From assembly GCF_032854445.1 (NCBI RefSeq), contig NC_088300.1:74576302-74640301 (forward strand): DNA of 64,000 bases. The letters are read 5' to 3'. The notes below the pieces were generated by a model, which made no database searches, was not told the DNA's origin, and saw only the letters and a program-made list of their open reading frames with translations. The translations under genes were made by a program, and so were the position numbers. How positions within the stretch are numbered: position 1 is the first letter of the stretch; the number at the start of each line of letters is the position of its first letter. This DNA comes from Liolophura sinensis. Its lineage: Eukaryota. Shown piece after piece: positions 9,316 through 54,740 of the stretch.

Positions 9316-9321
9316 TTTATT
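9316..9321 (-). terminator. TEP1: Candidate TEP1 polyadenylation signal (AATAAA on - strand)
   Basis: It is the first AATAAA downstream of the stop codon on the - strand, about 570 nt away. Confidence 0.3.
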
Positions 9322-9886
9322 TTACCTAATATTTTTATGCCATATCAGTTCATGATACCACTATAGTAAATATGTCTTGAGAAGACTGTGATAATATTTT
9401 CCAAATATAACAACAAACTTCCTTTCAGGTCAGTTTTTAAGAATGTTGAATACTTCACAATCCTCATAATCCTTTTATACACTCTGATGAGTATCGATGT
9501 AATACTGCTTCGCTAAAGTACACAGGTCTACACAGTGTTTCCAACCATCATAACAAGAACATAGGTAAAGTGTATATTAATAAACCACTGTCTAAACTTT
9601 CATCACAGTCTTCCCAAATTATTCAAAATTCTATCAAAAATGCTATTCAACTTGATCACACTTAAGAGTGCTATACTCTAGCAACTGATAATTTTGTAAC
9701 TTGTAAATATACTTCAAAAACACAATAAAGTCAAGCAAATTAGTAATCAGTGTCACATGAGTGCATGATAACAACTGAGAAATATACACAATGTTCAATA
9801 GTCCAAGATTAAATTAAATTCTAGTGTTTCGCAAACAATATAACAATGTTCCCCTAAACATTTAAATCCCAGAGGCTTGATAGTGA

Positions 9887-10024
9887 TCACATGGTCCAGG
9901 TAAGGAAGTAGACATTGCCCAGCTTGTCACCACAGATCAGGCCATGGCTGTCTCCCACTTTCTTCACTGACTGGCTGCTGCTCCTCAGACAGGTAACTGG
10001 GGAGGGGCAACAGAACTGACCAAC
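9887..10024 (-). CDS. TEP1: TEP1 terminal coding exon (…ICGDKLGNVYFLTWTM*), TGA stop at 9889-9887
   Basis: acatag acceptor. Matches the human C-terminus AVGDVQGNVYFLNWE*. Anchored to ORF 9927..10199. Confidence 0.8.
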   Translation of the reverse strand, partial: VGQFCCPSPVTCLRSSSQSVKKVGDSHGLICGDKLGNVYFLTWTM

Positions 10025-10114
10025 CTATGTAAGTCAGAAGCAAGCAAACATGAGAAAAACGCAATGGAATAAGCTTCAAACTTGGTAAATAATTCAAAAA
10101 CTTTTGACTGAGAT

Positions 10115-10335
10115 TTGTAAATAGGGCTCGACTGAGCATTATGAGGACATCAGAGGATACCCATGACCATCCGCAGGTTGCTAGATGGCCTTCCCACATG
10201 CCACCGGAGAGGAAACCAGCATGAGCTAGACTTCAACTCAACACTTATCCCATTGGTTAGAGGCTTCTGGGTCATGTGCTGCGCCAGCAAGCTAACCACT
10301 CGTCCATGTACCTGTATACTACAATACCAGCTTTC
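10115..10335 (-). mobile_element. tRNA-derived SINE copy
   Basis: Shares the core …ccatccRcaggttgctRg…ccttcccacatRc…ggagaggaaRccagcatgagctRgacttgaactca with the other copies in the window. Confidence 0.7.
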
Positions 10336-10368
10336 CGTGCGTTACAAGTTTCAACTACATTCACTCAC

Positions 10369-10470
10369 CTGAGTACCATCATGGGTCCAGACTTTAATGG
10401 TGCTGTCAAGAGAAGCTGTGAACACTAAATGCTTGGTGACCACAACAGCTGATATAGCTCCATCATGGAC
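10369..10470 (-). CDS. TEP1: TEP1 exon 54, WD40 (VHDGAISAVVVTKHLVFTASLDSTIKVWTHDGTQ)
   Basis: ctgtttag acceptor and gtgagt donor. Anchored via + ORF 10163..10372. Confidence 0.75.
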
Positions 10471-11304
10471 CTAAACAGGAAAAGAGGAAATGCAGAAAAT
10501 CTAGTTCCACCACGTAACAGTCTTCCATTCACTATTCTGTAACTCAGACTTTCCGAGTGCACTGTCCCTAATATGTCGAAACTGTATGCTACAAAAACCT
10601 GTTTCCTTTAATCCTTGGGTAATACTGACTTTATATCACCTAGTTAGTCTTAACTTTAATATGTGTTTCAAAAATAAACACAGAGAACTGTAAGCTACTA
10701 CTGTAAAAAAAGATGATCTTAATTTTGAGACGAGCTTTAATGGCTTTAATTATTCCTGCATAATGAGGTGATGTGAATTTAGAATTACAGGAAACCTGTT
10801 TTTGTCTCCTTCATCTTTGACACTTTGAGGACAGTGCAAGTGACAGGACTGAGTTCCAGGTATGACGTGAGTATAAGCTTAAGGCGTATTTAATGTGGAA
10901 GCTGAGCTGAGAACTTGGCCAACCAATCTCAGAGCTGCATGCAGTCGGCTTCCTACTCTTATGACAGGTGCACTGCAGTCTTCTGGATTACTGCAGAACA
11001 GTTATGAGGTTTGATATTCATGGGATCAGCATGCAACTACGTGTAGAAATGTGTCTGACATTGTTAATAAAAGTTCAACAAAACACAAATAATGAATGAG
11101 GCAATATGGCTGTGTTGTGAACAGGGATGGTGTTAAGAAAAATTTTCTGACAAATGGAAAAGTTTATTTCTCATGGGCAGTTAATACACACGCCTGTATT
11201 ATGATAAGTAAATAAACAATTATGCACAACAGACAGCATATATACATTCAGGTAATGCGCAGAATATGTACATGTAAACATTTTTGCCTAATGAGAACAC
11301 CTAC

Positions 11305-11487
11305 CTTGTTTGTGTTGAAAAGCTCCACAGTCACAGGAAGACCCTGCTGGTGAGTGGACTGTACCCACTTGGACAGATAACCCTCTGAGTTACCCACAAA
11401 GCACTCCTTTCCACACACGCCAACATCAGAGAGGCAGGCCTTACTGTTAGACTCAACAGTTGCCAGAGCTTGGCATTCTGGGAAAAT
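11305..11487 (-). CDS. TEP1: TEP1 exon 53
   Basis: ctgaag acceptor and gtaggt donor. 61 codons in a single open frame. ±1 nt. Confidence 0.5.
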
Positions 11488-11884
11488 CTTCAGTTGATTC
11501 TATTCAAAGTAAACATTAGGACTTACCTATAGGCATAGAATTGGAGATCCATAACAATGGTGAACTGTGTACCTAATCATCAGCTGGGTGTAAGGTGATG
11601 TATAAAGTCACAACCAAATTACAACCTGCTTCAGTTTGTCAAACTTGGAATTTTCAAGAAAGAAACATGTAAAGTTCGATCTGAGAAGCTATCCTCCACT
11701 TGCTTGTATTGAAACCTGGACGAACCAACCTTTTGATCATTAGTAACGTCTGTGTATGACAAAACAAGCCTGGACCTATCAGGAAACCTGCTTACAAGTG
11801 ACTAGACCACTGTATACTGATTGGTCAGGAGAGGGCAGTCTCCACAAACAAAACCTTTACACCAATTCTATGCTAGCCTGAAAC

Positions 11885-12060
11885 TTACATCCTTGCTTCC
11901 AATCCGGCTGTACATGGGAAGGTCAGCCAGCAACCTGCGAATGGTCTTGGGTTTCCACTCCAGTCTTTGGGCTCTGCTTGGTTTCCTCCCACCATAATGC
12001 TGTTCACCATTGTACACATGAAATATTCTTGGGTAGGGCGTAAAACACAAATCAAATAAA
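11885..12060 (+). mobile_element. SINE copy, 3' part (…catgggaaggtcagccagcaacctgcgaatggtcttgggtttcc…ccaccataatgct…)
   Basis: Family consensus. Confidence 0.7.
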
Positions 12061-12299
12061 TCAATACAATCTTGACTAAGTTCCTCATTTTGCCTTATTG
12101 TGAGAGCTCAATCGATCTTTGAAACCTGTTTTGGTTTATTTATCCTTTTGGAAGGTAAGATGATATCCTATTTAGAAAAATGTTTCTGCTCCAAAAATGA
12201 TATTAATTTACCTCTAAAAACATACTTTTTCAAACAATTTTCATTACAAATGCAGTCAGTAAGTTAGATTGGCTCCATCATACAGATATGGGAATAATA

Positions 12300-12590
12300 C
12301 GGTCTGCTGTTTTGATTTTTTCAGTGGATTACATCTGAGAAGACCAGAACTGTTGCATCTGAGAGGACCAGAACTGTTATATCTGAGAGGACCAGAACTG
12401 TTACATCTGAGAGGGCCAGAACTGTTATATCTGAGAGGACCAGAACTGTTACATCTGAGAGGACCAGAACTGTTATATCTGAGAGGACCAGAACTGTTAC
12501 ATCTGAGAGGACCAGAACTGTTACATCTGAGAGGACCAGAACTGTTACATCTGAGAGGGCCAGAACTGTTATATCTGAGAGGACCAGTAC
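12300..12590. repeat. 30-bp tandem repeat (ctgagaggaccagaactgttacat…), about 10 copies, in a TEP1 intron directly after the exon 52 donor
   Basis: The unit length is a multiple of 3, so both strands stay open. ORFs 12256..12714 and 12269..12658 result from this. Confidence 0.9.
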
Positions 12591-12594
12591 TCAC

Positions 12595-12730
12595 CTTACT
12601 CCTGGTATTGAGGTGCCAGAGCCCCAGTTTACCGTCCGCTCCCACTGAGAACAGGTAGGAGGAGTACTGATTATGGCACTTCATGCTTGTTACCCAGTCA
12701 CCATGGCCCGGCACTGAGCCAACTTTGGAG
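12595..12730 (-). CDS. TEP1: TEP1 exon 52, WD40 (…GHGDWVTSMKCHNQYSSYLFSVGADGKLGLWHLNTRSK)
   Basis: ctgacag acceptor and gtgagt donor at 12594. ORF 12256..12714 reads on into the intronic 30-bp repeat. Confidence 0.75.
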
Positions 12731-12899: not shown

Positions 12900-13235
12900 T
12901 AAAACTGCAGTTAAAGGAAGATTACCTGTTGCAGGTGAGGAGGTTCCCACTGTCAAGGTTTGTTAGTAAGTTACCTGTTACAGGTCAGAAGACTCACATT
13001 ACCCTGGTGTGTTGATAACTTATCTATTACAGATGAAGAGGTTCCAATTATCCAGGTGTGACGGACTTATCTGTTACAGGCTAGGAGGCTCACATTATCC
13101 AGGTGTGCTGATAATTCTCCTATTACAGGTTAGCAGGCACACATTATTCAGGTGTGCTGATAATTCTTCTATTACAAGTGAGGAGGCACACACTGTCCAG
13201 GTGTGCTGATAACTTACCTGTTACAAGCGAGAAGT
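12900..13235. repeat. Degenerate repeat of about 56 bp (ttacctgttacaggtgaggagg…ccaggtgtgctgataa), about 6 copies, intronic
   Basis: Seen directly. Confidence 0.7.
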
Positions 13236-13364
13236 TTGTCATTATCCAGATCCAGATGCCAGACTTTAACTTCCCCAGTCCACTCTCCTGACACCAAGGA
13301 GCCAACTGCATGGTGTGCCAGGCAGCTAATCGGGCTATCTGTCCTCAGCTCTAACAACATTCGC
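13218..13364 (-). CDS. TEP1: TEP1 exon 51, WD40 (…VGSLVSGEWTGEVKVWHLDLDNDKLLACN)
   Basis: tttaccag acceptor and gtaagt donor. Confidence 0.65.
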
Positions 13365-13783: not shown

Positions 13784-13902
13784 CGCAGACACACATTCCC
13801 TCGCCTCAGGATCCGCCAGAGGTTGATAGTGCCGTCATCCGACCCTGTGGCCAGACTGTCCTCCCTCACAAAACAGATAGCGTTCAGCGATTTACCATGA
13901 GC
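13784..13902 (-). CDS. TEP1: TEP1 exon 50, WD40 (AHGKSLNAICFVREDSLATGSDDGTINLWRILRRGNVCL)
   Basis: ttcccag acceptor. The gtcagt donor was chosen for phase 2. An alternative gtaaga donor ends the exon at 13780. ±1 nt. Confidence 0.55.
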
Positions 13903-14469
13903 CTGGGAAATACAATGGTCACATTTATTTATTTATATTATTTGACTCTTGCTTGACACAACATCCACGAATTTTGATGGTTGGAGGAAATCAGCGTTCC
14001 TGGTGTGGTAATGACTGACGAACTTCCTCATGTGATGAACAGATGAGTACACCATGCTGGTGGTCTTTAACGAATGTCAACCACTTATTGTCACCAGGCT
14101 TCTTATTTTCACAACCAGTGCAAGTTGGGAATCTAAAAAGTCCTTGTCAAAAGGCTGGGTTTGAACCCCTACCTAGTGTGCCCAAGTGAATGAAAGGTTA
14201 GTTCCTCTAAAGGCTCGCTCCCATGTAATGTTTCCAGCACCTTCCACTTAAACACGACAATTTACGAAGAGGTACACATCCAATGTCCTTCATAACTGGG
14301 CCAACTGGAAGACTTCACACTGCCATATCAGCTGTAAACATCTATTTAAAGTACATGTATGAACAATTATCAATTATGAACAATTATTTTCTCTGAAACC
14401 AAACACTGGTTGACTTATATTGTAAAATAAGCCTAAGCAGCATTTTAGAATTTATTAGATTGATGTTTT

Positions 14470-14700
14470 ACAGCGTACTCAACAATATTTCACTTCTGAG
14501 ACAATGGCCAGAATTATGGTGGGAGGAAACTGGCCAGAGCCAGGGGCGAAACCCACTGCAATTCACAGGTTGTTGGTAGACCTTCCAACATTCGGCCAAG
14601 CATTTCAGGAATGAATGAATGATTTTGGCTTAATGCCACACACTGGCAATATTTCAGCCATATCGTGGCGAAGCATTTCAGGAGCCTGACATGTTCAGTT
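14470..14700 (-). mobile_element. SINE copy, partial
   Basis: Family consensus (attatggtgggaggaaactgg…). Confidence 0.6.
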
Positions 14701-14866: not shown

Positions 14867-14945
14867 CTGTACAGACACAGCCAGTCTGAAGCTCTGACTG
14901 GCCTCCTCTGTCTGACCTTTGACCCAGACCTTCAAGCAGCCATCT
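14867..14945 (-). CDS. TEP1: TEP1 exon 49, WD40 (RDGCLKVWVKGQTEEASQSFRLAVSVQ)
   Basis: cattgtag acceptor and gtgagg donor. Anchored via + ORF 14919..15149. Confidence 0.65.
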
Positions 14946-15559: not shown

Positions 15560-15771
15560 CTGCTGCCTGTAGCAACCAATGCCTCATCCCACGATGACGC
15601 TACACATGTAACCTCTCCATTGTGTTGACCAATCACATCCCCAGATCTCACTTGTCCAGCCCATAATTTCACAGACTTGTCAAGGGAACTGGTGCAGATA
15701 GTTCCAGATTTAAAACAGTCCAGTGAAACTACTCGGTCTGAATGACCAGTCAGACAGGTCACTTCATTTGC
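15560..15771 (-). CDS. TEP1: TEP1 exon 48, WD40 (…TCLTGHSDRVVSLDCF…SLDKSVKLW…)
   Basis: ccacag acceptor and gttagc donor. ORF 15535..15762 frame. Confidence 0.7.
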
Positions 15772-15789
15772 CTGTGGAAGGTATGGATA

Positions 15790-16235: not shown

Positions 16236-16390
16236 CTGGAGGGGTTTCCACAGTTTGATAGAGCCAATGTCATCACAGGTTACAACAACAACCTCCTCAA
16301 ATGACACAGGAGGAGCTTTCTCCTTCTTGGACTTCTCCAGTTCCTCAACCTGATCTCCCCAGCTTGGCTCAGATTCCTTCTCTTCTTCCT
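16236..16390 (-). CDS. TEP1: TEP1 exon 47, acidic linker plus WD40 end (…VTCDDIGSIKLWKPLQ)
   Basis: ttaatcag acceptor and gtataa donor. ±1 nt. Confidence 0.55.
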
Positions 16391-16722: not shown

Positions 16723-16855
16723 CCTTTGTGACCTTGACAAGCATGTCACAGGCCAGCACACGACCTTGATGTCCATACAGGGTGGTGATCTCTGTACCTT
16801 TATGGGACCACACCTTGGCTGTTCCATCACTGGACGCAGTGACCACACAACCATA
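16723..16855 (-). CDS. TEP1: TEP1 exon 46, WD40 (YGCVVTASSDGTAKVWSHKGTEITTLYGHQGRVLACDMLVKVTKG)
   Basis: tgtttcag acceptor and gtgtgt donor. An alternative donor is at 16732, with a matching phase-0 acceptor for exon 47. Confidence 0.6.
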
Positions 16856-17279: not shown

Positions 17280-17525
17280 CGAACAAAGGCAAAGTGATCG
17301 AGTAACAAGTGATCAGATCTGATTGGTGGCCAGCATTAAGGTGAGAGCAAAACGGACACAGCCGGGGGAACACACAACCATCCACAGGTTGCTGCAGACC
17401 TTCTGACGTGTGACCTGGAAAGGAAGCCAGCATAAGCTGGACTTGAACTCACACTGACTGCATCTGTGAGAGGCTAATGCATCAGTGTGCTATAGGGCAC
17501 AGTAACCATTCAGCCACGATGGCCT
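17280..17525 (-). mobile_element. SINE copy
   Basis: Family consensus. Confidence 0.7.
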
Positions 17526-17548: not shown

Positions 17549-17656
17549 CTTGTAGGCTAAGCCATTGATGGTTGAGGAATGACCAATCAGAGATGTCCTC
17601 TCTTTCTCAGCATTGATGTCCCAAACCTTCACATTGAAATCATTGGAGGAGGTGAT
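17549..17656 (-). CDS. TEP1: TEP1 exon 45, WD40 (ITSSNDFNVKVWDINAEKERTSLIGHSSTINGLAYK)
   Basis: cccacag acceptor and gtgggt donor. ORF 17510..17704 frame. Matches human LLISCSSDGSVGLWDPESGQRLGQFLGH. Confidence 0.8.
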
Positions 17657-17964: not shown

Positions 17965-18085
17965 CAAGAAATCTCCAATGTTGGACCATTTACAATCTGT
18001 GATCCAATCAGCATGGCAGGCATGCAAGATTTTGATTGGTTCAATGTCAGTTAGGTCAAGGTCAATGGTGGTCATATCCCAGATC
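17965..18085 (-). CDS. TEP1: TEP1 exon 44, WD40 (IWDMTTIDLDLTDIEPIKILHACHADWITDCKWSNIGDFL); the 5' end is uncertain
   Basis: Matches human FPACHRDWVTGCAWTKDNLL. gtcagt donor at 17964. The phase-consistent acceptor is tctgtgag, giving a start at 18085. The better-looking ttgttccag acceptor would give a start at 18093. Confidence 0.5.
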
Positions 18086-18339
18086 CTCACAGACTGGAAC
18101 AAATAATACATGTACACGTATACAATGTATACAGATAAATTCTGTGATGCATCAATAGGCATTTTACACCCAAACCACCAACAAATATTGCTTAGTGTAG
18201 GAATAATTTCTATCACTTCCCCAATGTTTCTTACAGAATGATAAAACTAAATGACGTTCAGCTTGATTTAAGCACTTAGTGAGTGGAATTAATTCATATT
18301 CTGCACAACAGTTACATGAGATGTTTTAAACTGACAGCT

Positions 18340-19960
18340 ACCTGTCTCTTACAATACCACCACACTGCCATTGGTTTACAGCACAGAACTGACAGCTACA
18401 TGTCTTTTATAATACCACCACAATGCCATTGGTTTACAGCATGGAACTGACAGCTGCATGTCTTTTATAATACCACCACACTGCCATTGGTTTACAGCAT
18501 GGAACTGACAACTACATGTCTTTTATAATACCACCACACTGCCATTGGTTTACAGCACAGAACTGACAACTACATGTCTTTTATAATACCACCACACTGC
18601 CATTGGTTTACAGCATGGAACTGACAGCTACATGTCTTTTATAATACCACCACACTGCCATTGGTTTACAGCATGGAACTGACAGCTGCATGTCTTTTAT
18701 AATACCACCACAATGCCATTGGTTTACAGCATGGAACTGACAGCTGCATGTCTTTTATAATACCACCACACTGCCATTGGTCTACAGCACGGAAATGACA
18801 GCTACTTGTCTTTTATAATACCACCACACTGCCACTGGTTAACAGCATGGAACTGACAACTACATGTCTTTTATAATACCACAACACTGCCATTGGTTTA
18901 CAGCACTGAACTGACAGCTACATTTTTTTTATAACACCGCCATATTGCCATTGGTTTACAGCACGGAACTGACAGCTGCATGTCTTTTATAATACCACCA
19001 CACTGCCACTTGTTTACAGCACAGAACTGACAGCTACATGTCTTTTATAATACCCCAACACTGCCATTGGTTTACAGCACGGAACTGACAGCTACTTGTC
19101 TTTTATAACACCACCATACTGCCATTGGTTTACAGCATGGAACTGACAGCTACCTGTCTTTTATAATACCACCACACTGCCATTTGTTTACAGTACGGAA
19201 CTAACAGCTACATGTCTTTTATAATACCACCACACTGCCATTGGTTTACAGTACGGAACTGACAGCTACATGTCTTTTATAATACCACCACACTGCCACT
19301 TGTTTACAGTACGAAACTGAAAGCTACATGTCTTTTATAATACCACAACACTGCCATTGGTTTATAGCATGGAACTGACAGCTACCTGTCTTTTATAATA
19401 CCACCACACTGCCACTTGTTTACAGTACGGAACTAACAGCTACATGTCTTTTATAATACCACAACACTGCCATTGGTTTATAGCATGGAACTGACAGCTA
19501 CATGTCTTTTATAATACCACCACACTGCCACTTGTTTACAGTACGGAACTGAAAGCTACATGTCTTTTATAATACCACAACACTGCCATTGGTTTATAGC
19601 ATGGAACTGACAGCTACATGTCTTTTATAATACCACCACACTGCCACTTGTTTACAGCACGGAACTGAAAGCTACATGTCTTTTATAATACCACAACACT
19701 GCCATTGGTTTATAGCATGGAACTGACAGCTACATGTCTTTTTTAATACCACCACACTGCCATTGGTTTACAGCACAGAACTGAAAGCTACATGTCTTTT
19801 ATAATACCACCACACTGCCACTTGTTTACAGTACGGAACTGACAGCTACATGTCTTTAATAATACCACCACATTGCCATTGGTTTACAGCACGGAACTAA
19901 CAGCTACATGTCTTTAATAAAACCATCACATTGCTATTGGTTTACAGCAAGAACAAGTGA
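18340..19960. repeat. 58-bp minisatellite (ctgacagctacatgtcttttataataccaccacactgccattggtttacagcatggaa), about 28 copies, in the TEP1 intron between exons 44 and 43
   Basis: Seen directly. Confidence 0.9.
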
Positions 19961-20524
19961 CCTTTAATCATAAAAACATAGCATTTCCAAATATTTAACA
20001 GCCCGTATGTGAAATTACAGGCACTGTTACCACAACGTCAATTTACAAACTGACCATGTCTCTGCTAGCAGTGGCCAATCTAGTCTCTGAGGGGTTGAAT
20101 GAGCAGCTGGTTACCGGTGCAATGTGGCCGGTCAGAACCTCTATGGGTGAAACACTGTAAACAGGTAAAGCACACAAAACACATCACTGATATTTTCACC
20201 CCAAAAATATATTACTGTAAATCTTCAACCATTCAACCACTGAAGCAATTTTTCGAGTGAAATTTATGCACACACTTATTATAAAAAAAATAATGCCAAA
20301 ATTGATCAGTAGGATATTATCCTATCTCCCAAAAGAATCTTACTACACATTTCTATTAAGATCAATAGAACTCTTAGAATTTGGTAAAATGAGTTGTTTA
20401 TTCCTGGACAAAACATCAGTTCCAACACAGCAGCTGATTAATCCAATGGTCGCTTGCCTGAGAGCTTATCAGAAAGTATTTGACTTTATTAGCATGATAA
20501 ATGCTACACGTAGTACACGTGTAC

Positions 20525-20694
20525 CTTTTATTTTCCGTGATCTTGAGTTTATAGGGTGTCTGGTATCTGAAGAGACAACATGTAAAGTCTTCTGATGTGG
20601 AGGATAGAAGCGTCTTTCCTGCCGTGACACACAGGACAGGCTTGCTGTGACCCATCAGCTTGTACAGCTCATTCCCTGTCCCACTCTCAAAAAC
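20525..20694 (-). CDS. TEP1: TEP1 exon 43, WD40 (VFESGTGNELYKLMGHSKPVLCVTAGKTLLSSTSEDFT…); the 3' end is uncertain
   Basis: ccacag acceptor. The only canonical donor downstream is gtacac at 20524. The WD motif would instead favour ending after …SEDFT at 20581, which has no GT. Confidence 0.45.
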
Positions 20695-21180: not shown

Positions 21181-21287
21181 CTTGCTGGTGGAGTCCTCTG
21201 AGCCTGTGATGATATTCTCCCCACTGATAGTGTAAGTAATACACCTGACTGGGTCAGCATGCGCAGCTATTTCATAGTTCAGCAATC
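21181..21287 (-). CDS. TEP1: TEP1 exon 42, WD40 (…ITGSEDSTSK)
   Basis: cccag acceptor and a weak gtcggc donor. Phase-consistent with exon 43. Confidence 0.55.
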
Positions 21288-21825: not shown

Positions 21826-21967
21826 CTGATTCCACATCAAACACTCGGACCTGACCTGAATGGTAACCCACGGCAACACTAGTGCCATCTGGTGACAGAG
21901 CGACCGAAACTGGGATAACTTCATCCTCCAAGCTGTGCAGCAGTTTACCCAGATGAGCAGACCAAAC
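21826..21967 (-). CDS. TEP1: TEP1 exon 41, WD40
   Basis: tttgtag acceptor and gtgggt donor. Anchored to ORF 21757..22056 with a +1 frame offset. Confidence 0.7.
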
Positions 21968-22684: not shown

Positions 22685-22783
22685 CTTAACTTTCTGATCA
22701 TCGCTGACAGTGACTAGTTCCTTGCCAGAGGGAGTAAAGACCAGCTTGTTGATTGGCAGAGAGTGGCCCTGAATATCACCCAG
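22685..22783 (-). CDS. TEP1: TEP1 exon 40, WD40
   Basis: gtttcag acceptor and gtaaat donor. ORF 22628..22810 frame. Confidence 0.7.
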
Positions 22784-22989: not shown

Positions 22990-23100
22990 TTGACTGATGT
23001 TTCAAGAATATTTCACTTATACAACAGTGGCTACCATTATGGTGGGAGGAAACCGGGCAGAGCCCAGGGGAAACCCACAAGCATCTGCAGGTTAAATACT
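22990..23100 (-). mobile_element. SINE fragment
   Basis: Family consensus. Confidence 0.5.
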
Positions 23101-23455: not shown

Positions 23456-23575
23456 CTGTGCTCCGTTCAGAGCTGACCAAAGCTTGACCTCTCCATCCAA
23501 AGCTGCAGACGCTATGTACCTGCCAGACGGTGAAAACCTTGCCTCTCTGACAGAACTCTTGTGGCCACGTAAAAT
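23456..23575 (-). CDS. TEP1: TEP1 exon 39, WD40 (ILRGHKSSVREARFSPSGRYIASAALDGEVKLWSALNGAQ)
   Basis: tgtcag acceptor and gtgaga donor. ORF 23399..23599 frame. Confidence 0.75.
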
Positions 23576-24236: not shown

Positions 24237-24345
24237 TGCTTTCCGTCTTCTGTTGAATATGTCCCATATCTTAAGGGTTGAATCCCAGCCCCCAGTAACT
24301 ACACTCTCGTCTTCAGGATGGAAGGACACACAGTTTATAGGCTTT
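24237..24345 (-). CDS. TEP1: TEP1 exon 38, WD40 (KPINCVSFHPEDESVVTGGWDSTLKIWDIFNRRRKA)
   Basis: ttttcag acceptor and gtgaga donor. Matches human KSLNCVAFHPEGQVIATGSW. Confidence 0.75.
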
Positions 24346-24529: not shown

Positions 24530-24960
24530 AATAATCCATACTGTATCTGTACATAGATACAGTGAAAGGATGTGGGTTTGTGCAGATACAGTGAAAGGAT
24601 GCAGGTTTGTGCAGATACAGTGAAAGGATGTGAGTTTGTGCAGAAACAGTGAACGGATGTGGGTTTGTGCAGATACAGTGAACAGATGTGGGTTGGTGCG
24701 GATACAGTGAACAGATGTGGGTTTGTGCAGATACAGTGAACGGATGTGGGTTTGTGCAGATACAGTAAATGGATGTGGGTTTGTGCAGATACAGTAAACG
24801 GATGTGGGTTTGTGCAGATACAGTGAAAGGATGTGGGTTTGAGCAGATACAGTGAACAGATGTGGGTTTGGGTAGATAAAGTGAACGAATGTGGGTTTGG
24901 GCAGATACAGTGAAAGGATGTGGGTTTGTGCAGATACGGTTACAATGAAAGTATTCCATG
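24530..24960. repeat. 30-bp minisatellite (tgcagatacagtgaaaggatgtgggtttg), about 14 copies, intronic
   Basis: Seen directly. ORF 24444..24959 is a repeat translation. Confidence 0.9.
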
Positions 24961-25063: not shown

Positions 25064-25204
25064 ATGTCCTTGAACTCGCAGACTTCCTTGCCGTCCTTGA
25101 CCGCCCAGACCTTTACGTTACAATCCCAACCTGCCGATGCGATAAGGCTACCATTCGAATCACAAGAGTTGACAGATCGGCCATGGCCCTTTAATGTGGA
25201 TACA
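25064..25204 (-). CDS. TEP1: TEP1 exon 37, WD40 (VSTLKGHGRSVNSCDSNGSLIASAGWDCNVKVWAVKDGKEVCEFKD)
   Basis: ctccag acceptor and gtaagg donor. ±1 nt. Confidence 0.65.
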
Positions 25205-25628: not shown

Positions 25629-25753
25629 CGTTGTCCAGATGCCACATCCCAGAGGAACATCATTTTATCTTTGGAGGATGACACCAGACGTAACTCATTC
25701 ACAAAACATAGGTCGGTCAGTTTGTTACTGTGGCCATGGAACGTCCTCAGCTC
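25629..25753 (-). CDS. TEP1: TEP1 exon 36, WD40 (ELRTFHGHSNKLTDLCFVNELRLVSSSKDKMMFLWDVASGQ)
   Basis: ttgacag acceptor and gtttgg donor, chosen for phase 2. ±1 nt. Confidence 0.55.
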
Positions 25754-26502: not shown

Positions 26503-26598
26503 CTTTCCAGAGGTGGTGTCATAGAGCTTCACCATACAGTCTGCGTCCCCACAGGCCAAGATCCTCTCACAGGGAGACACGGCCACACAAAGCACCGC
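26503..26598 (-). CDS. TEP1: TEP1 exon 35, first WD40 repeat (AVLCVAVSPCERILACGDADCMVKLYDTTSGK)
   Basis: catgtag acceptor and gtacag donor. ±1 nt. Confidence 0.65.
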
Positions 26599-27385: not shown

Positions 27386-27563
27386 ACTGGGTAGGTCAGC
27401 AATGGTCAGCATACACTGGTCAGGGGTCAGGGGTCTGTTGTTCCACCTGATGGTGCCCGAGTTCTGACCCGCTGGACGTGCCTTTAGAAGTCGCTCAGCA
27501 TCCAGGGCTGGCTGGGAATCAGTGTAGTCATTGAGGGCCTGTTGGAGAGTCAGTCCTGGGTGA
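27386..27563 (-). CDS. TEP1: TEP1 exon 34
   Basis: ctgccag acceptor and gtgagt donor. ORF 27308..27685 frame. Matches the human pre-WD40 segment QYPRLLPQQAANQPLDSPL…. Confidence 0.7.
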
Positions 27564-28669: not shown

Positions 28670-28775
28670 CGAGCCAGGATGTGAGCATGGCGGGACACAA
28701 AGTACTTGTACTCTTTCACTTTCTTCTTCTCCAAGAAGTTCTGCTGGTTTTTCTTGCTGGACTTTCTCCAGGAAT
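28670..28775 (-). CDS. TEP1: TEP1 exon 33 (DSWRKSSKKNQQNFLEKKKVKEYKYFVSRHAHILAR)
   Basis: ttacag acceptor and gtaagg donor. The frame was chosen for phase continuity. It is offset from ORF 28610..28828 and anchored to that ORF's coordinates. Confidence 0.6.
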
Positions 28776-29654: not shown

Positions 29655-29769
29655 CCCTGATGGAGAAGTCCTCTATCAGCTGAGTTATCTGCCCTTGTCT
29701 ACACTTCATCTCTAAGAAGGTTAAGTCACAGAGTATTGTCTCCAGTTCTTGAAAATGGCCACTACACAT
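29655..29769 (-). CDS. TEP1: TEP1 exon 32
   Basis: catgcag acceptor and gtatgt donor. ORF 29566..29775 frame. Confidence 0.65.
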
Positions 29770-30047: not shown

Positions 30048-30136
30048 CAGGTGGTATGGTAGTTCCGAAAACGCCTTCCCATCACCCCCCTGCCAGGTAC
30101 TGTCAGCCTTGGGGTCAGCCACATGCCAGAAATAAC
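30048..30136 (-). CDS. TEP1: TEP1 exon 31 (GYFWHVADPKADSTWQGGDGKAFSELPYHL)
   Basis: ccccaatag acceptor, chosen for phase, and gtgagt donor. ELPYHL matches human DLPYHLLQSG. Confidence 0.7.
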
Positions 30137-30446: not shown

Positions 30447-30556
30447 CTGAGAGAAGCTTATGTAGTTGACGTTGCACCTCGTCAGAATCATGGCTCATGT
30501 ACCTCTGTCGTACTGCCTGCTCCATCCCCATGTGAGCCAGGCAGAAAGTTTGATTC
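30447..30556 (-). CDS. TEP1: TEP1 exon 30
   Basis: gttgtag acceptor and gtcaga donor. ORF 30280..30594 frame. Confidence 0.6.
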
Positions 30557-31053: not shown

Positions 31054-31255
31054 ATAAAATAACAAAAATCTACTGACGCAGAGTCCAAGGGCCGCAGGAA
31101 AGCATGCAGCGCCCTCTGTAGGCGAAGGAAGGTGGCTGCCGGTAGAAGTTTGCTGGCAGGTAGCTCTGTTTTAGCCAGTTCCTCTACACTGCAATCATAT
31201 TTCTCCATCTCTCTGTGCAAGCTGAGTAAATCATGTAGCTCTGTTTCTCCAAGAC
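31054..31255 (-). CDS. TEP1: TEP1 exon 29
   Basis: ctgtag acceptor. The phase-compatible GTAAAA donor is at 31053. An alternative GTAGAT donor would end the exon at 31074 but breaks phase with exon 30. Confidence 0.55.
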
Positions 31256-33135: not shown

Positions 33136-33283
33136 CTGTGGGATGGGCTGTGGCAGCCACTCCATGTTGGAGGGTTGATGACTGTCATCCATAGAGTCTA
33201 TCCCATCTATAAAGACTACCACGGGACCTGCACTACGCTTCCCACACTCTTTCAGTACATCATTGAACTTGGGTACAAGATTT
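33136..33283 (-). CDS. TEP1: TEP1 exon 25, NACHT Walker B region (…GPVVVFIDGIDSMDDSHQ…)
   Basis: ttttcag acceptor and gtaggt donor. Matches human TQVLIIDGADRLVDQNGQ. Confidence 0.8.
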
Positions 33284-33589: not shown

Positions 33590-33800
33590 TGCAACGCAGA
33601 TTGCAGAGCTTCTATCAGTGCACCAGGGGACCTCCGTGACTGAGGGGCTTAACAGCAGCATGGTACAATGACCCATGAGCCTCCCATCGATGCAGTCACT
33701 GTGTGTTCAAGTCCAGCTCATGCTGGCTTCCTCTCCTGGCCGTACATGGGAAGGTCTTCTAGCAACCTACAAATGGTCGTGGGTTTCCCCTAACTGAAAT
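33590..33800 (+). mobile_element. SINE copy with a tRNA-like head
   Basis: …gtgttcaagtccagctcatgctggcttcctctcctggccgtacatgggaaggtcttctagcaacc…. Confidence 0.7.
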
Positions 33801-34285: not shown

Positions 34286-34458
34286 TTGTACTCCTGCGGC
34301 ACATCTGTTGGCAGGGAAAACCTGTGCTGCAGCTCTGTGCACAGCCTCCTAAGGGTGGGGGTAAGGCTGGTAGAACCTGGGGCAGATCCCACCACATGCT
34401 CCAGTACACTGTCAGGATCCTGACATACTAGACTCTTGTACTCCTCATGAACTGCAGC
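34286..34458 (-). CDS. TEP1: TEP1 exon 24, NACHT (…TLRRLCTELQHRF…)
   Basis: ctctcag acceptor and gtaaga donor. Matches human LTLLRRLCTYLRGQL. Confidence 0.75.
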
Positions 34459-35039: not shown

Positions 35040-35222
35040 CAGCAGAGCAGATTTCCCTGTCCCAGACTTCCCTGTAAGGATAAGCACCCCTGATTGGTTG
35101 TCAGCCATCTTACTCAGGCACTGTTTCACCTGGGATTTTCTTCCCACAAACTTGGCTGTGTGCATGGCTAATGCAGCCTGATGAAGTTTGTTGATGCGTT
35201 GTTCTTCATCCTGGGTTATCTC
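35040..35222 (-). CDS. TEP1: TEP1 exon 23, NACHT P-loop (…GVLILTGKSGTGKSALL)
   Basis: cattgcag acceptor, chosen because it is phase 0 and consistent with exon 22, and gtaagg donor. The Walker A motif matches human RLSLVTGQSGQGKTAFL. The ORF 34935..35306 frame extends further 5', but that stretch is likely intronic. Confidence 0.75.
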
Positions 35223-35520: not shown

Positions 35521-36690
35521 TGGGGCATCAGTGTACAGACTGACAACACCAGACCAAATCTATACATGTATCAGTGTACAGACTGACAACACCAGACCAA
35601 ATCTATACATGTATCAGTGTACAGACTGACAACACCAGACCAAATCTATACATGTATCAGTGTACAGACTGTGAACACCAGACCAAATCTATACATGTAT
35701 CAGTGTAAAGACTATGAACACCAGACCAAATATATACATGTATCAGTGTACAGACTGACAACAACAGACCAAATCTACACATGTATCAGTGTACAGACTG
35801 ACAATACCACACCAAATCTATACATGTATCAGTGTACAGACAGACAACACCAGACCAAATCTGTACATGTATCAGTGTACAGACTGATAACACCACACCA
35901 AATCTATACATGCATCAGTGTACAGACTGACAACACCAGACCAAATCTTTACATGTATCAGTGTACAGACTGACAACACCAGACCAAATCTATACATGTA
36001 TCAGTGTACAGACTGACAACACCAGACCAAATCTACACATGTATCAGTGTACAGACTGACAACACCAGACCAAAATCTATACATGTATCAGTGTACAGAC
36101 TGACAACACCAGACCAAATTTATACATGTATCAGTGTACAGACTGACAACACCAGACCAAATCTTTACATGTATCAGTGTACAGACTGACAACACCAGAC
36201 CAAATCTGTACACGTATCAGTGTACAGACTGACAACACCAGACCAAATCTATACATGTATCAGTGTACAGGCTGACAACACCACACCAAATCTATACATG
36301 TACCAGTGTACAGACTGACAACAACAGACCAAATCTAGACATGTATCAGTGTACAGACTGACAACACCAGACCAAATCTGTACATGTATCAGTGTACAGA
36401 CCGACAACACCAGACCAAATCTATACATGTATCAGTGTACAGACTGACAACACCAGACCAAATCTATACATGTATCAGTGTACAGACTGACAACATCAGA
36501 CCAAATCTATACATGTATCAGTGTACAGACCGACAACACCAGACCAAATCTATACATGTATCAGTGTACAGACTGACAACACCAGACCAAATCTATACAT
36601 GTATCACTGTACAGACTGACAACACCAGACCAAATCTATACATGTATCAGTGTACAGACTGACAACACCAGACCAAATCTGTACATGTAT
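35521..36690. repeat. 43-bp minisatellite (cagtgtacagactgacaacaccagaccaaatctatacatgtat), about 27 copies, in the TEP1 intron upstream of the NACHT exon
   Basis: Seen directly. ORFs 35617..35973, 36004..36189 and 36384..36662 are repeat translations. Confidence 0.9.
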
Positions 36691-37722: not shown

Positions 37723-37843
37723 CTCATCTGGGTAGAGCATCAAAATGCTTCCCCACAAGTCATTCAGGACCTTCCACCCAAACGCAGACAGGTTGCCAGT
37801 AAAGGGCTTGCCATCCACCACTCCCTGCCAGCTACATGGATAA
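37723..37843 (-). CDS. TEP1: TEP1 exon 22 (YPCSWQGVVDGKPFTGNLSAFGWKVLNDLWGSILMLYPDE)
   Basis: gttacag acceptor and gtaaaa donor. Matches human [39 protein letters not shown]. Confidence 0.8.
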
Positions 37844-38326
37844 CTGTAACAGAGAGGGCATAAGCCATTTCACACAAATCACTACATTCATAAACTACAC
37901 TAGATAACAACAAATTATTCTTTCATTTATTAACGTGCAGTTCACGATGTGTACTGACATACAAAATGCCATAAGGTTTAGTTTTACAAGGGCGAAAATG
38001 GCTTTAAACTGCAGCTTGGAAATTAAGCAGCCTGACCTGCTGACACCAATGGTGACAGCTTTCAAAACAACTCTTTGGACTGAAGAGTCAGCATGGGAGG
38101 CACTAAGATGGTCGAATTCCCACAGAGTTCATGATGTCATTTTCGAAAATTTTGGGAAAATATGCTTAAATTAGACATGTTCTTAAAGGATGTAAAAATG
38201 AAAAAATATTTTTATCATCTTTTTAATTTTATAAGCTTATGGTTAAGACCTTTAAGACAAAATATGACTCAACTTTCTGAACTACAATCACTTTGAAAAC
38301 TTTTCGCTTTGATCACCTTTTGTCTG

Positions 38327-38440
38327 AGCAGAGTCCTGATTGCCTCACTGTCTCCTTCAGTTCGTCCATTCTGTTCTTACTCACGCTGTTCTCCGACTCA
38401 AAGTCACTACGGTAACTCTCTGGCACATCACTTAGTGTAA
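38327..38440 (-). CDS. TEP1: TEP1 exon 21 (SDVPESYRSDFESENSVSKNRMDELKETVRQSGLCSDK)
   Basis: cactaag acceptor and gtgatc donor. Matches human [33 protein letters not shown]. ±1 nt. Confidence 0.7.
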
Positions 38441-38479: not shown

Positions 38480-38800
38480 AAAAAAGAATAGATATTGTGT
38501 CCTTAATGCGTGACAATATAAACGAATATGATAACAAAACATTAACATGATAATACAGATGAATAACAAAACATTAATATGACAATATAGACAAATAACA
38601 GAAAATTAACATGACAATATAGTTGAGTAACAAAACATTAACATGATAATATAGACCAATAACAAAACATTAACATGACAATATAGACCAATAACAAAGC
38701 ATTAACATGACAATATAGACGCATAACAAAGCATTAACATGACAATATACATGAATAACAACACATTAACATGACAATACAGATAAACAACAAAACATTA
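38480..38800. repeat. Repeat of about 33 bp (ataacaaaacattaacatgacaatatagacca), about 9 copies, intronic
   Basis: Seen directly. Confidence 0.8.
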
Positions 38801-50912: not shown

Positions 50913-51279
50913 CTGAAAACAACATAGACATTTAAACAAAACATAATAATAATAAAAAAAAAAAACAGAAGAGCAAATGCATAAAGCCAACTTAACATCT
51001 GAAATAGAATTTAATTCTAAGACTGGAGACAATGTTTCTGTACAATTGTTTATACCCCACAACAAACCACACCACAACAAACCACACAACTTATTCTGAC
51101 TCCTGATGCAGCAAAACCTGTATGAGGAAAACTAAACACCATTTCTACAATCTCTTAAAAACTCAGAAAAACTAGCCCAACAGCTTCAATACTAACAGTA
51201 AGTTTTAATGTATGTACACATGGTACAGTTTCAATGAAATGCAGGTATGAACTTAAGTGAGGCCCATTTACTGACGTAC

Positions 51280-51376
51280 CTAGCTGATATTTATCAAAAT
51301 CAGGAAACTTTGTGACCATGACTCGTCTGAGAGCAGCAGGAAGTGATCCATAGTTGATGGACTTGTCATAAAATGC
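51280..51376 (-). CDS. TEP1: TEP1 exon 6, TROVE (AFYDKSINYGSLPAALRRVMVTKFPDFDKYQL)
   Basis: tgtttgcag acceptor and gtacgt donor. Matches human LPACLRTAMTDKFAQFDEYQLAKY. Confidence 0.8.
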
Positions 51377-51630
51377 CTGCAAACACCCAAAATGTTCCAG
51401 AATTAAAGACATTTGTGACAAATTCTTGTTTCTCTCATTGACACAGCTCCTAACTGGGTAGATGATTTGTAGAATATAACTAATTTCATGTTAACGAGAA
51501 TCCTACTGTAGCCTTACCCCAGCTATTACACTATGCAGGCTCATTCTTAGCCCTGAAATCATTGCAATAGTCACTTAATCAGTTCATCTGTGTTCTATTT
51601 TTCATTTTTCTACATTGACAATTTACTCAC

Positions 51631-51792
51631 CTGATACAGCTCTGCCACATCAATCCAATCTGATGGTAAACATATGGCTGCCTTAAAGTATTTTTTCAGG
51701 AAAGTCCGACAAGGATGGACATTTGACGCCAATGCCAGCAGAAAGTTGGCAGGAGTCCGGATGTTTAGCTCTCGTCTTGTATACAAGGCAGT
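51631..51792 (-). CDS. TEP1: TEP1 exon 5, TROVE (TALYTRRELNIRTPANFLLALASNVHPCRTFLKKYFKAAICLPSDWIDVAELYQ)
   Basis: tttctcag acceptor and gtgagt donor. Strong match to human TEP1 TROVE (…YFCAIVQLPSDWIQVAELYQ). Confidence 0.85.
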
Positions 51793-51904
51793 CTGAGAAA
51801 GGCAAGAATATTCAGAGTGAATCCTACTTATAAAATTAACAAAATGTATATCAAAGAAAAACGGACTTATGAGCAAAGTTTGGAATATTAACACCTATGC
51901 TCAC

Positions 51905-52039
51905 CTTCAAAACAAATTCTGGATCATACAGGGCTATGTTTTCTGCGAGGGCCATAAGCTGAGCCCGAGATTCATCCTTGACATCCTTGAAGTTTGGTGA
52001 ACAAATAAGTGAGGAGCTGATGGCATTCAAAAGCGCCAT
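51905..52039 (-). CDS. TEP1: TEP1 exon 4, TROVE domain start (MALLNAISSSL…LYDPEFVLK)
   Basis: tgttgtag acceptor and gtgagc donor. Matches human MALLSLLCSTL…LLEPEFILK. Confidence 0.8.
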
Positions 52040-52357
52040 CTACAACAGTCATTAGGACAAACTCATAAATGGAATGATTATCAGTCATTCAACAATATTA
52101 TCAGTCACAGACTCAATCAAAACAACAAAAATCTCAATCCAACCAAAAAAAAAAAAAAAAAGAGCACAACACATTTTCACTACAAGATTAAAATCTAACA
52201 TAAAATAAACTTCATGATATACTTTTGATGTGCATGTCGTGTGTTTTTGGCATTTATTGTCATCAAGTTAGAGATGAGAACTAGATGTCTGCTACAAAAT
52301 CTGGGTCATTCTCTGAGGAGTTTTGCTAGTACTGTTTTCTCACATGCTGATGAATAC

Positions 52358-52674
52358 CTTTTTGCTGGAAGTATCTAGCACAGGTATGGGGACACTAGTG
52401 GAGGGTGAGAATGCCGGCATCTGCACAGCCTTATCCTCACTCAGTTTGATAAACATCTCATACTTTGGGGCTCCTATATCTTTGTCTCTACTTCCTTCCT
52501 TGAGATGAGCCTTCTCTGGGCTATTCATTTTCTTTGATCCAACTGGAGCACTGGATCTCTTCTCCGTTTTCTCCCATTTCTTGAGTTTTTGTGTGACAGA
52601 TGAGGCTGTTTTCTGAATCTTCACACCAGGTTTGATCCAACGGTTATCTTCTGTCATGTCCCAACCCTTCGTAC
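52358..52674 (-). CDS. TEP1: TEP1 exon 3 (…TKGWDMTEDNRWIKPGVKIQK…SSKK)
   Basis: acaacag acceptor and gtattc donor. ORF 52340..52657 frame. Confidence 0.6.
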
Positions 52675-52982
52675 CTGTTGTACTTGTGTACTTCAGAAGA
52701 TTTGAATCTAGAAGAACAAATCAAATAACTGGACACCTGTAAATGAGTACATTATCTTAAGTCTGAGGTTAAACTCTGTGGCATAAGGTTATTCTCTGAT
52801 AAATGTTCACAAATCCATGAAGCAGTTAGTGAAATTAATATTTCAAAACATATCAATTAAATACAATGTAGTATGTTGTAATCATGCCAGTGGCCAAATA
52901 CAGCTCAATAATTTAATACCATTCAATATAAATAAAGCATAAATGGCCAAAAACTGAGATACATGTAAAACTGAATATGTAC

Positions 52983-53708
52983 CTTTGGTCAGACTTGGAG
53001 ATGGGCCATGTCCTGCAGGAGTCTGTGTCAGCAGGGACAGGGGAGAAGAGAGAGCACTGCTGCGTAATCCACTCCCAGTGGTAGACAGAAGAAGTTTGTT
53101 TTCCAGGCCTGCTGGACTACTCAAGCTCTTCAGTTTGGATGTAGTTACAGGTGTTGAATACCTGCAGGGAGTGGTGACTCCCAGGGTGGGAGTAGCACTC
53201 TTCATCTGAGGAAAGCTGTTCAGTAGGGCAGACTGACAAGTCAGCAAACTAGATGAAGTCTTTGTTAGGCCTTTATCCATCTGCATCAGACCTGGTGTCA
53301 GCTTTGTCTGCCTAGGTGAGGCTGTCATTAAACCAGGTGATGCCTTCACTAAGCCAGGTGAGGTTTTCTTTAATCCAGGTGAGGTGACTACCAAGCTTGA
53401 ATCAATAGTTTTCAATAAAACATTTGAACACTTAGATGCTGATAGGACAGGGGTTTTACTTTTCTTAGAGGCAGCCCTCTTCTTCTTCAAGATCATTTCT
53501 TTTTTCTTCCTTTGAATATCAGGGGAAGACTGTAGACGCTGGAAGACAGCTGTGTCAAGTCGTCCTGCAGAGGTTCTCTGGGGTTGCCCACAGATTGAGC
53601 TATCCAGAACTTGTGCATCGTTGTTAGATAACAGTAGAGCATGACTGCTGGACAGGTATGATTGATAGGACTTTAATCCAATCACTGGGGTGGAACTCTT
53701 AAGATTAC
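52983..53708 (-). CDS. TEP1: TEP1 exon 2, a large Ser/Thr/Pro-rich low-complexity N-terminal region (SPGLKKTSPGLVKASPGLMTASP…)
   Basis: ORF 52882..53823 frame. ttgaaag acceptor and gtacat donor. Phase 1 in, 1 out. Confidence 0.65.
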
Positions 53709-54065
53709 CTTTCAATGTTGAAAACACACAGAAAGTACATATACAGTACATATATAAAGAAACTCTGATAGCTAACGACATCAGAAAACATAGGCTACTG
53801 CCGGTCACTAAATCTACAGTCAAAAATCAAATGAAAGTAAAAGGTTGATTTCCCAGCATTAATAATTTAGTAATACATCTATTAATTATGATAATAATTC
53901 CTACATTAAATTAAATTATTACTGCAAATTAAATCTCAATAAACATCTCAACACTGCATATCCATTCCTAACAATATAAATATCTCATAAGTATTGGTTG
54001 ATGAGGAGTCAGTATTTGATGATTTCTTTCAGTTGACCTATGCTATTTCAACAATACAAACTCAC

Positions 54066-54129
54066 CAGGCTTAGAGGATAATCCCAGTGTCCCTGCTCCC
54101 AGCTGAGGATTGGATAGCGTTGGAGGCAT
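54066..54129 (-). CDS. TEP1: TEP1 start-codon exon (MPPTLSNPQLGAGTLGLSSKPG)
   Basis: ATG at 54129-54127 with an in-frame TAA three codons upstream. gtgagt donor at 54065-54060. Confidence 0.6.
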
Positions 54130-54611
54130 TGTGTCTTACAACTGCACACTCATACATATAACTGATACAAGTTCTAGCTCAGGATTACTGTATAGGTCTG
54201 CAATCACCACCAACAAGGACATATGCAGAAATCGTGTATGTCACCACCACCTAAATAAAAACAACATACGTATTTCTCCCAATTTCTGGCTAGCATTGTC
54301 ACAATGTATTTTCAGAAGAACAGTGGGCCTACCGGTACAGGCATGAAATGATGCCAACACTTAAGTCTTTCTCATAATAAATTTGTCGTTTAATTAAATT
54401 AAACGCTGAAGCCTATTGAAATATTAGAAATCGATGACCTCGGGGTTTAATTTTAGAATTTAGTTCAATTAACTTCCAGCATAAGATGGATTCGAGCGCT
54501 GGCTGTAAGAACGCCCAGTTAGCTGGCCTGCAACAACATGTTCATGTGGACAAGAAGATTGTATGTTTCCGCATTATTAAAAACTGCTATTTTGCAGATA
54601 ACAGACCTTAC

Positions 54612-54740
54612 CTACTGCTTGTGGATCAACGCATGAAGTGACAAAATGTTGCAATCTATTGAAACTCGACGAAACCTAGCCCGAAAATGCTGACACCGCC
54701 AGTAGAAATGTCTGTCGCAACACTGAGAAATTGTTTACAT
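54612..54740 (-). other. TEP1: Candidate non-coding first exon (5'UTR) of TEP1
   Basis: The - strand gtaagg donor sits at 54611-54606. A gtgtgcag acceptor lies just upstream of the ATG exon, near 54145. The 5' extent is a guess. Confidence 0.3.

Follow-up and report, generated by a model that had tools for sequence, protein, structure and literature searches.

Does the 64,000-nucleotide (nt) stretch at positions 74,576,302 to 74,640,301 of contig NC_088300.1 in the Liolophura sinensis assembly GCF_032854445.1 (hereafter the window, numbered from its first letter) carry a complete gene for TEP1 (telomerase protein component 1, the vault-associated TROVE protein), and is the exon-intron structure of this gene as anciently fixed as an earlier note on the same DNA had proposed? 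Judged by its sequence, the minus-strand locus is very probably a single-copy invertebrate TEP1 ortholog: tblastn and spliced alignments to six full-length TEP1 proteins delineate a colinear gene that runs from an ATG at 54129 to a stop at 9887. The model comprises 56 coding exons (median 134 nt) and 55 introns (median 531 nt, all of them GT-AG), and encodes a predicted protein of ~2774 residues after a 1-nt correction in exon 16. The earlier note had described the ortholog as complete; its orthology and colinear arrangement hold, whereas its completeness is weakened by the 1-nt frame break in that exon. We consider the TEP1 gene of the window to be an ordinary and essentially full-length member of a known family (i.e. 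a routine gene).

The model was built with a custom protein-to-genome spliced aligner (GT/GC-AG introns, three phases, affine gaps) guided by the six full-length references. As a looser ‘jump’ setting generated 72 blocks with numerous spurious short matches, stricter settings were used, and disagreements between references were settled by the better splice consensus and the absence of micro-exons. The core exon set was identical whichever reference guided the alignment, while several micro-exons (21698-21678, 20403-20344, 10700-10699, 53647-53646 and others) were put forward by single references and were rejected, since the other references lent them no backing and one exon aligns equally long. 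Stop-free segments of the minus strand encode clear TEP1 peptides from 54 kb to 9.9 kb, and the model shows no gap of at least 8 residues at places covered by four or more of the six aligned TEP1 proteins; therefore, no exon appears to be lost from it. The predicted number of coding exons (56 plus or minus 1, because a few exon boundaries are uncertain) replaces the 55 counted in the earlier note, and none of the listed alternative boundaries (exons 2/3, 7, 22/23, 42, 43, 51/52 and 54) changes it.

At the 5’ end, a TAA in the same frame lies 9 nt ahead of the ATG at 54129, and the encoded N-terminus (MPPTLSNPQL...) displays an ‘LSNPxL’ motif common to urchin and amphioxus TEP1. The start previously assigned to 54740 reads ATG TAA on the minus strand and is without coding potential; the segment 54612-54740 (minus strand) may, speculatively, constitute a non-coding 5’ exon, for which GTAAGG at 54611 would be the donor and ...GTGTGCAG ahead of 54142 the acceptor. 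At the 3’ end, GNVYFLTW (9919-9896) is followed by TM and a TGA stop (9889-9887). The AATAAA at 9316-9321 (minus strand) is a candidate polyadenylation signal, as the sole AATAAA/ATTAAA within 900 nt past the stop; it would imply a 3’ untranslated region (UTR) of ~570 nt, and its last base coincides with the gene end (9316) chosen previously.

The frame-corrected model was searched against Pfam (DUF5920, DUF4062, AAA_16, NACHT, HTH_NWD1 and APAF1_C being scored on sub-segments). TROVE (PF05731) is matched at 362 bits (E 7e-108) by residues 376-809, which cover profile positions 16-442 of 442 and are encoded by exons 3-13 (52.37-44.85 kb). DUF5920 (PF19334, the vWA-like module after TROVE) reaches 44.6 bits (cut-off 27) on the frame-corrected exon 16, DUF4062 (PF13271) 50.6 bits and NACHT 27.9 bits (cut-off 26.7), with AAA_16, HTH_NWD1 and APAF1_C likewise above their cut-offs. 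WD40 scores 324 bits, and the WD40/propeller matches (which extend from ~27.4 kb to 9.9 kb) include Beta-prop_TEP1_2nd (267.6 bits, cut-off 89) and Beta-prop_TEP1_C (150.9 bits, cut-off 32). The resulting domain order is: a serine/threonine/leucine-rich N-terminus, TROVE, the DUF5920/vWA-like module, a TIR-like DUF4062, NACHT, a winged helix, an APAF1-like helical region and a WD40 array that ends in the TEP1 C-terminal propeller. Walker A (GKSGTGKS, 35072-35049) and Walker B (VVVFIDGID, 33222-33196) are both intact. These positions agree with the earlier placement of the TROVE exons at 51.2-52.0 kb (where TROVE sequence spans 52039-51280, within the longer Pfam match), of the NACHT motifs at 33.1-35.2 kb, and of the WD40 array from about 27 kb to the C-terminal GNVYFL at 9.9 kb. 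NCBIfam contributed sub-threshold STAND/AAA matches only. An early probe with a few window peptides returned TROVE, DUF4062 and P-loop/NACHT-type families from Pfam, and the PDB entry 11gz, a solved piece of human ‘Telomerase protein component 1’.

When 1.8 billion representative proteins were searched exhaustively with HMMER (a word-indexed protein search yielded only fragments of up to 750 residues), the best matches were proteins of 2300-2900 residues from Mizuhopecten, Branchiostoma, Anneissia, Lytechinus and Mya, to which their sources give the name telomerase protein component 1(-like); at lower ranks came TEP1 of opossum, lizard, caecilian, frog and fishes. All top full-length matches with an informative source name are TEP1, rather than NWD1 or APAF1, which the earlier note had singled out as the competitors to watch for. 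Likewise, tblastn of TEP1 proteins against the window produced one colinear series of high-scoring segment pairs on the minus strand. Overall identity amounts to 46.7% with scallop (2615 aligned residues; 60% in TROVE and 55% in DUF4062), 44.5% with amphioxus, 42.6% with crinoid and 29.9% with opossum, and to 51.7% over 1111 residues with a partial Solemya protein. The NACHT, HTH_NWD1 and APAF1_C modules are common to other DUF4062/NACHT/WD40 STAND proteins (NWD1, NWD2, NPHP3) and to APAF1 (see also PMC13174449), and could by themselves suggest that the gene belongs to one of these families; however, all of them are devoid of TROVE and have only the central STAND module in common with the window protein, whose full TROVE, DUF5920 and two TEP1-specific propeller families lie in one colinear open reading frame (ORF), so that we regard such an affiliation as scarcely credible. 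Splicing that keeps the frame, and intron positions that the window gene has in common with TEP1 of other phyla across the TROVE-to-TIR junction, contradict the notion that TROVE belongs to a separate gene. Ro60 (TROVE2), which consists of TROVE and vWA only (~540 residues), was rejected as well: the window protein runs ~1700 residues further with TIR-like, NACHT and WD40 regions, and PDB probes (including the first 131 TROVE residues, or the TIR-like domain) returned human TEP1 only.

Several points weigh against the reading of the locus as an intact TEP1 gene. The boundaries of exons 2/3, 7, 22/23, 42, 43, 51/52 and 54 were picked on weak grounds; the junctions, UTR exons and polyadenylation site are predictions from genomic sequence only; and, as assembled, the conserved frame is broken in exon 16 (42324-42470, identified by tblastn and spliced alignment), such that translation through the conserved splice sites meets a stop at codon 972. 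The start of this exon shares intron position and phase with opossum, paddlefish, crinoid and Solemya, and its end is common to opossum and crinoid. As these conserved ends (phase 0 to phase 2) require a length of 3n+2, the observed 147 nt are one base in excess. The 5’ part of the exon reads VDNLINLWSG...LLDDFL in one frame (homologous to scallop VDNLIFLSGG...STFL), and its 3’ part reads KYRRIVYPDLLFVSVALAG in the next (homologous to KKYREIVNPNLLYVNISFAG), the switch falling between ‘LLDDFL’ and ‘KYRRIV’. The apparent 1-nt insertion can be placed at 42389-42396 on the minus strand (CTTCTCAAAATAT), most simply as an extra A in the A4 run at 42392-42389. Deletion of one base there gives DDFLLKYRRIV and a 2774-codon ORF without internal stop; the Solemya counterpart (167 nt, i.e. 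3n+2) reads SDFLKKYRQTV.

Since the frame stays intact and conserved over the ~1800 codons downstream, we attribute the extra base most readily to an error of sequencing or assembly, or else to an allele carried by the individual that was sequenced; this explanation we hold with reasonable, though not full, confidence. Taken at face value, the assembled sequence would instead describe a TEP1 with a genuine extra base that has been inactivated recently, either as a pseudogene or as a loss-of-function allele, and whose product of at most ~970 residues would retain TROVE and a partial vWA-like region and lack the TIR-like, NACHT and WD40 parts. The stop at codon 972 fits such an inactivation, and protein searches across the frameshift recovered no nearly identical sequence of the same species, be it a protein or a transcript fragment, that contradicts the assembly. 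Nevertheless, the downstream codons are spread over 40 exons with no stop or second frameshift and with 44-55% identity to scallop TEP1, and every splice site is intact; therefore, any inactivation must be very recent. Moreover, assemblies commonly misjudge the length of short homopolymers by one base, and altogether we deem inactivation unlikely. A further possibility is that the sequence is correct and that shifted splice sites are used (donor after 42909, acceptor before 42429). This pair, which is the only way to an intact ORF (2770 residues) without correction, gives an open, in-frame path and was picked by the scallop-guided spliced alignment, but it replaces VDNLINLWSG... (homologous to VDNL(I/L)FL of scallop, Solemya and amphioxus) with unrelated sequence, gives up the position of intron 15 (identical in opossum, paddlefish, crinoid and Solemya) and depends on a purine-rich acceptor tract (TGGGATTGATGACAG), which renders it very improbable. 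Were the insertion genuine and also fixed in the lineage (a prospect we rate as quite improbable), the outcome would be either a truncated, TROVE-only RNA-binding TEP1 or shifted splicing that rewrites part of the vWA-like module, and vault RNA binding would be uncoupled from NAD hydrolysis in a natural experiment.

To what extent is the structure of the gene ancient? The TEP1 loci of Anneissia japonica (crinoid), Monodelphis domestica (opossum) and Polyodon spathula (paddlefish), together with a partial one of Solemya velum (which constitutes the whole within-mollusc comparison), were mapped by aligning each annotated protein to its own locus, gap-free over the whole length, and intron positions were compared on a MAFFT alignment. 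Exact matches (column and phase) to the 55 introns of the window gene number 36 in opossum (55 coding exons), 34 in paddlefish (54 coding exons) and 35 in crinoid (45 coding exons), against a chance expectation that we estimate at ~0.4 matches per pair (55 x 54 / 8322 positions). In the partial Solemya gene (21 coding exons) 16 of the 20 introns match exactly, and the other four have the same phase and lie within 6 columns. All in all, for 46 of the 55 introns an exact match exists in one or more of the deuterostomes, and for four others the nearest is at most 2 columns off; on this comparison, many TEP1 introns are ancient, and the gene keeps most introns of an intron-rich bilaterian ancestor. 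Conversely, exact partners are lacking in opossum for about 14-19 introns of the window gene and in the window gene for 18 of the opossum introns, introns 2, 33, 37 and 53 find no counterpart in any species compared, and the sole partner of intron 1 is a nearby same-phase intron in Solemya. Human TEP1 is cited with 55 exons (PMC10531829), the number also given in the earlier note. Given the unmatched introns and the 45-exon crinoid gene, the similar counts therefore reflect many ancient introns combined with lineage-specific losses or gains. The closeness of 55 and 56 is partly coincidence and indicates no fixed structure: of the proposed anciently fixed arrangement, the antiquity of many positions stands and the fixity does not. 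Equal exon counts need not mean identical structure, in keeping with the familiar pattern of differential intron loss.

In vertebrate TEP1, TROVE and the DUF5920/vWA-like module form the RNA-binding part. By homology, the window protein would sit inside the vault particle and bind small RNA via TROVE; it would act as a STAND-type switch, the oligomerisation of which would be controlled by the WD40 and NACHT regions, and its TIR-like domain would hydrolyse NAD(P)+. Both the vault function and the NAD-hydrolysing (NADase) activity are thus suggested by likeness to the protein described in PMC13174449. Two 2026 preprints (including PMC13174449) describe DUF4062 as a TIR-like NADase, and human TEP1 was reported to hydrolyse NAD+/NADP+ in reconstituted vaults, with E1008 being required and R908A and R976A lowering the activity; R954, which projects into the active site, is not among the reported mutants (PMC13174449). 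The TIR-like domain of the window aligns to PDB 11gz_A (human TEP1) with E 3e-67, and R908, R954, R976 and E1008 are all conserved, E1008 corresponding to Glu1155 (codon 39658-39656). Chain positions of 11gz_A were taken as residue number minus 893, an offset that puts an arginine at all three named arginine positions. The conserved active-site residues would extend the 2026 TEP1-NADase reports, by homology, to a lophotrochozoan-type sequence. Rfam and tRNA scans of the window (~39% G+C) returned no matches, so that neither a vault RNA nor any other Rfam family was found within it.

The nearest relatives of the gene are molluscan. The best match in the representative library was the TEP1 of Mizuhopecten yessoensis (XP_021378535.1, 2701 residues; E 1e-141 with a 427-residue probe), which is colinear and has the same domain order, and differs in the low-complexity N-terminal region and in several loops. 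All 20 introns of the partial Solemya velum model (KAL5022413.1, 1190 residues) have a same-phase partner here, although its annotation ends past the TIR-like domain and it shows one large exon where the window gene has exons 2 and 3. Monodelphis domestica TEP1 (XP_056665943.1) preserves the same architecture in spite of its low overall identity. More distantly, hundreds of bacterial DUF4062-NACHT proteins (Swarozyc/Evangelion-type defence NADases) match the central DUF4062 and STAND ATPase (E 1e-35 to 1e-68), and the NADase chemistry is reported to be common to them and TEP1 (2026 preprints including PMC13174449); as they have no TROVE, TEP1 propellers or introns, they are relatives of one module and not of the gene. 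Public TEP1 models are frequently truncated or split (1190 residues in Solemya; 656, 505 and 1340 residues in the Branchiostoma RefSeq models P0026, P0030 and P0266), in agreement with the earlier remark that the gene is often fragmented in annotations. Because pipelines often truncate or split the long, many-exon TEP1, a curated model with 56 exons helps the annotation of this genome; it also draws attention to a probable 1-nt assembly error, which, if overlooked, would lead to a ‘low quality’ or split prediction. The suggested role as an invertebrate reference model is undermined by the frame break, and the significance beyond annotation is small.

The remaining coding exons are given below in the order of transcription (all on the minus strand); where no other evidence is named, they were defined by spliced alignment together with the intron comparison. 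Exon 1 (54066-54129) contains the initiating ATG, reads MPPTLSNPQLGAGTLGLSSKP and ends in phase 1 at a GTGAGT donor, exon 1 of Solemya also ending in phase 1. Exon 2 (52983-53708, 726 nt) encodes the low-complexity N-terminal region within a 314-codon open frame; its phases fit, and its boundaries are less certain as the references diverge there. Exon 3 (52358-52707) completes the N-terminal region and begins the TROVE match, intron 3 being common to opossum, paddlefish, crinoid and Solemya. TROVE continues through exons 4 (51905-52039), 5 (51631-51792) and 6 (51280-51376), all three recovered by tblastn and spliced alignment: introns 3 and 4 are common to all species compared, exon 5 is backed by the intron comparison including Solemya, and intron 6 is common to crinoid and Solemya only. 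Exon 7 (50758-50912) carries an acidic/basic TROVE insert, and three references agree on its less certain donor (GTAAAC), intron 7 being present also in opossum. Exons 8 (50261-50391), 9 (49981-50138), 10 (49062-49171) and 11 (48423-48513) encode further parts of TROVE, while exon 12 (46087-46234), a variable basic TROVE insert, follows the scallop reference and is succeeded by an intron common to opossum, paddlefish and Solemya.

The end of TROVE and the start of the DUF5920/vWA-like region share exon 13 (44768-44948), for which Pfam adds to the alignment and intron evidence. Intron 14, which closes the DUF5920 exon 14 (43939-44085), has a partner of equal phase, at most 1 column off, in each of the three deuterostomes. 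Exon 15 (42937-43023) was placed by three references and ends ...LRDRVQ at a GTAACT donor, its conserved intron agreeing in column and phase with those of the four species. Beyond exon 16, exons 17 (41844-41909) and 18 (41068-41238; YSDQILRFVAERG..., a linker) are backed by an intron comparison that includes Solemya. The DUF4062/TIR-like domain starts in exon 19 (40490-40666; Pfam, spliced alignment and PDB alignment), continues in exon 20 (39576-39818; alignment to 11gz_A), which holds the Glu1155 codon, and reaches its C-terminal part in exon 21 (38317-38430; weak AAG acceptor; spliced and PDB alignments, intron comparison). Exon 22 (37723-37843) was proposed by four of the six references and intron 22 is found also in crinoid; the frame is also maintained if a donor 12 nt further downstream is joined to an acceptor at 35210. 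NACHT occupies exons 23 (35040-35222, with the P-loop), 24 (34286-34458), 25 (33136-33283, with Walker B) and 26 (32508-32684), Pfam and spliced alignment being the evidence for exons 23 and 25. After exon 27 (31884-31976), the winged-helix region (HTH_NWD1) lies in exon 28 (31494-31626; also Pfam), followed by exon 29 (31078-31255; spliced alignment, its intron common to crinoid only), exon 30 (30447-30556), the APAF1_C-like helical exon 31 (30048-30136; also Pfam), exon 32 (29655-29769) and exon 33 (28670-28775; spliced alignment).

A linker and the start of the WD40 region are encoded by exon 34 (27386-27563; spliced alignment and Pfam), and WD40 sequence then extends over exons 35 (26503-26598), 36 (25629-25753), 37 (25064-25204; spliced alignment), 38 (24237-24345), 39 (23456-23575), 40 (22685-22783) and 41 (21826-21967). 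For exon 42 (21181-21287, WD40), which follows the amphioxus and crinoid references, the acceptor was preferred to a 21-nt micro-exon option, and intron 42 is also present in crinoid; exon 43 (20525-20694, WD40; spliced alignment) has an alternative donor 6 nt downstream. Exon 44 (20055-20154) also encodes WD40 sequence, as does exon 45 (17965-18093; also Pfam), which contributes to the TEP1 second propeller, and the WD40 array goes on through exons 46 (17549-17656), 47 (16723-16855), 48 (16236-16390, with an acidic insert), 49 (15560-15771) and 50 (14867-14945). Exon 51 (13784-13902, WD40) admits an alternative junction (13752|13338) with an equal exon count, intron 51 lying within 2 columns, in the same phase, of introns in paddlefish and crinoid. 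Exon 52 (13218-13364, WD40) is followed by exon 53 (12595-12730; spliced alignment), also WD40, whose GTGAGT donor is succeeded within a few bases by a 24-bp minisatellite that keeps the exon frame open for more than 100 codons and could mislead ORF-based exon calling. A divergent propeller blade is encoded by exon 54 (11305-11499), defined by the amphioxus reference and consistent in frame, with an acceptor that is the least certain boundary of the model. The TEP1 C-terminal propeller occupies exon 55 (10369-10470; also tblastn and Pfam), and exon 56 (9887-10024; tblastn, spliced alignment and Pfam) ends in …GDKLGNVYFLTWTM and the TGA stop.

The introns of the gene contain seven minisatellites (12329-12591, 18329-19949, 24555-24937, 35527-36690, 38531-38800, 41280-41473 and 46874-48403) with units of 24-58 bp in 5-37 copies. 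The TEP1 introns yielded neither nested protein-coding genes nor transposon ORFs, the long open frames there being minisatellite artefacts. Downstream of TEP1 and convergent with it, the plus strand carries the 3’ part of a PUF60 ortholog (44-2952, its end at ~2952; PDB PUF60 matches down to E 1e-35), which includes the end of RRM2, a linker, the UHM domain and a last exon ending ...NGRFFGGRIVRAEKYDPDLYEANDLSG before its stop. The opossum TEP1 is followed directly, in tail-to-tail orientation, by a gene of the PARP family with WGR, PARP_reg and PARP catalytic domains (51103-51430 of the opossum locus, L002); the window has PUF60 at this place, and the neighbourhood of TEP1 is therefore not conserved. 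Between PUF60 and the 3’ end of TEP1 we observed an intergenic satellite (7617-8828) with a 117/406-bp unit in ~10 and 3 copies (91-93% matches), and a (TA/ATATAC)-type microsatellite is located near 6.2 kb. Upstream of TEP1, the plus strand harbours a conserved 123-codon open frame (62238-62606; …KNSRKSRNGRGRGLPKKG) with no Pfam match, the relatives of which are a 97%-identical Logan protein of 120 residues (P0279) and others at ~50% identity; the frame is probably a real exon of a gene divergent from TEP1. Furthermore, a dispersed repeat family of ~100-180 bp occurs in both orientations and mostly in TEP1 introns (10154-10300, 11981-12070, 14450-14587, 17364-17488, 23002-23093, 33665-33790, 45629-45837, 48605-48685, 57679-57900 and 59684-59829); its copies are 77-88% identical, have no Rfam or tRNA match, and probably represent a short interspersed element (SINE) or a miniature inverted-repeat transposable element (MITE).

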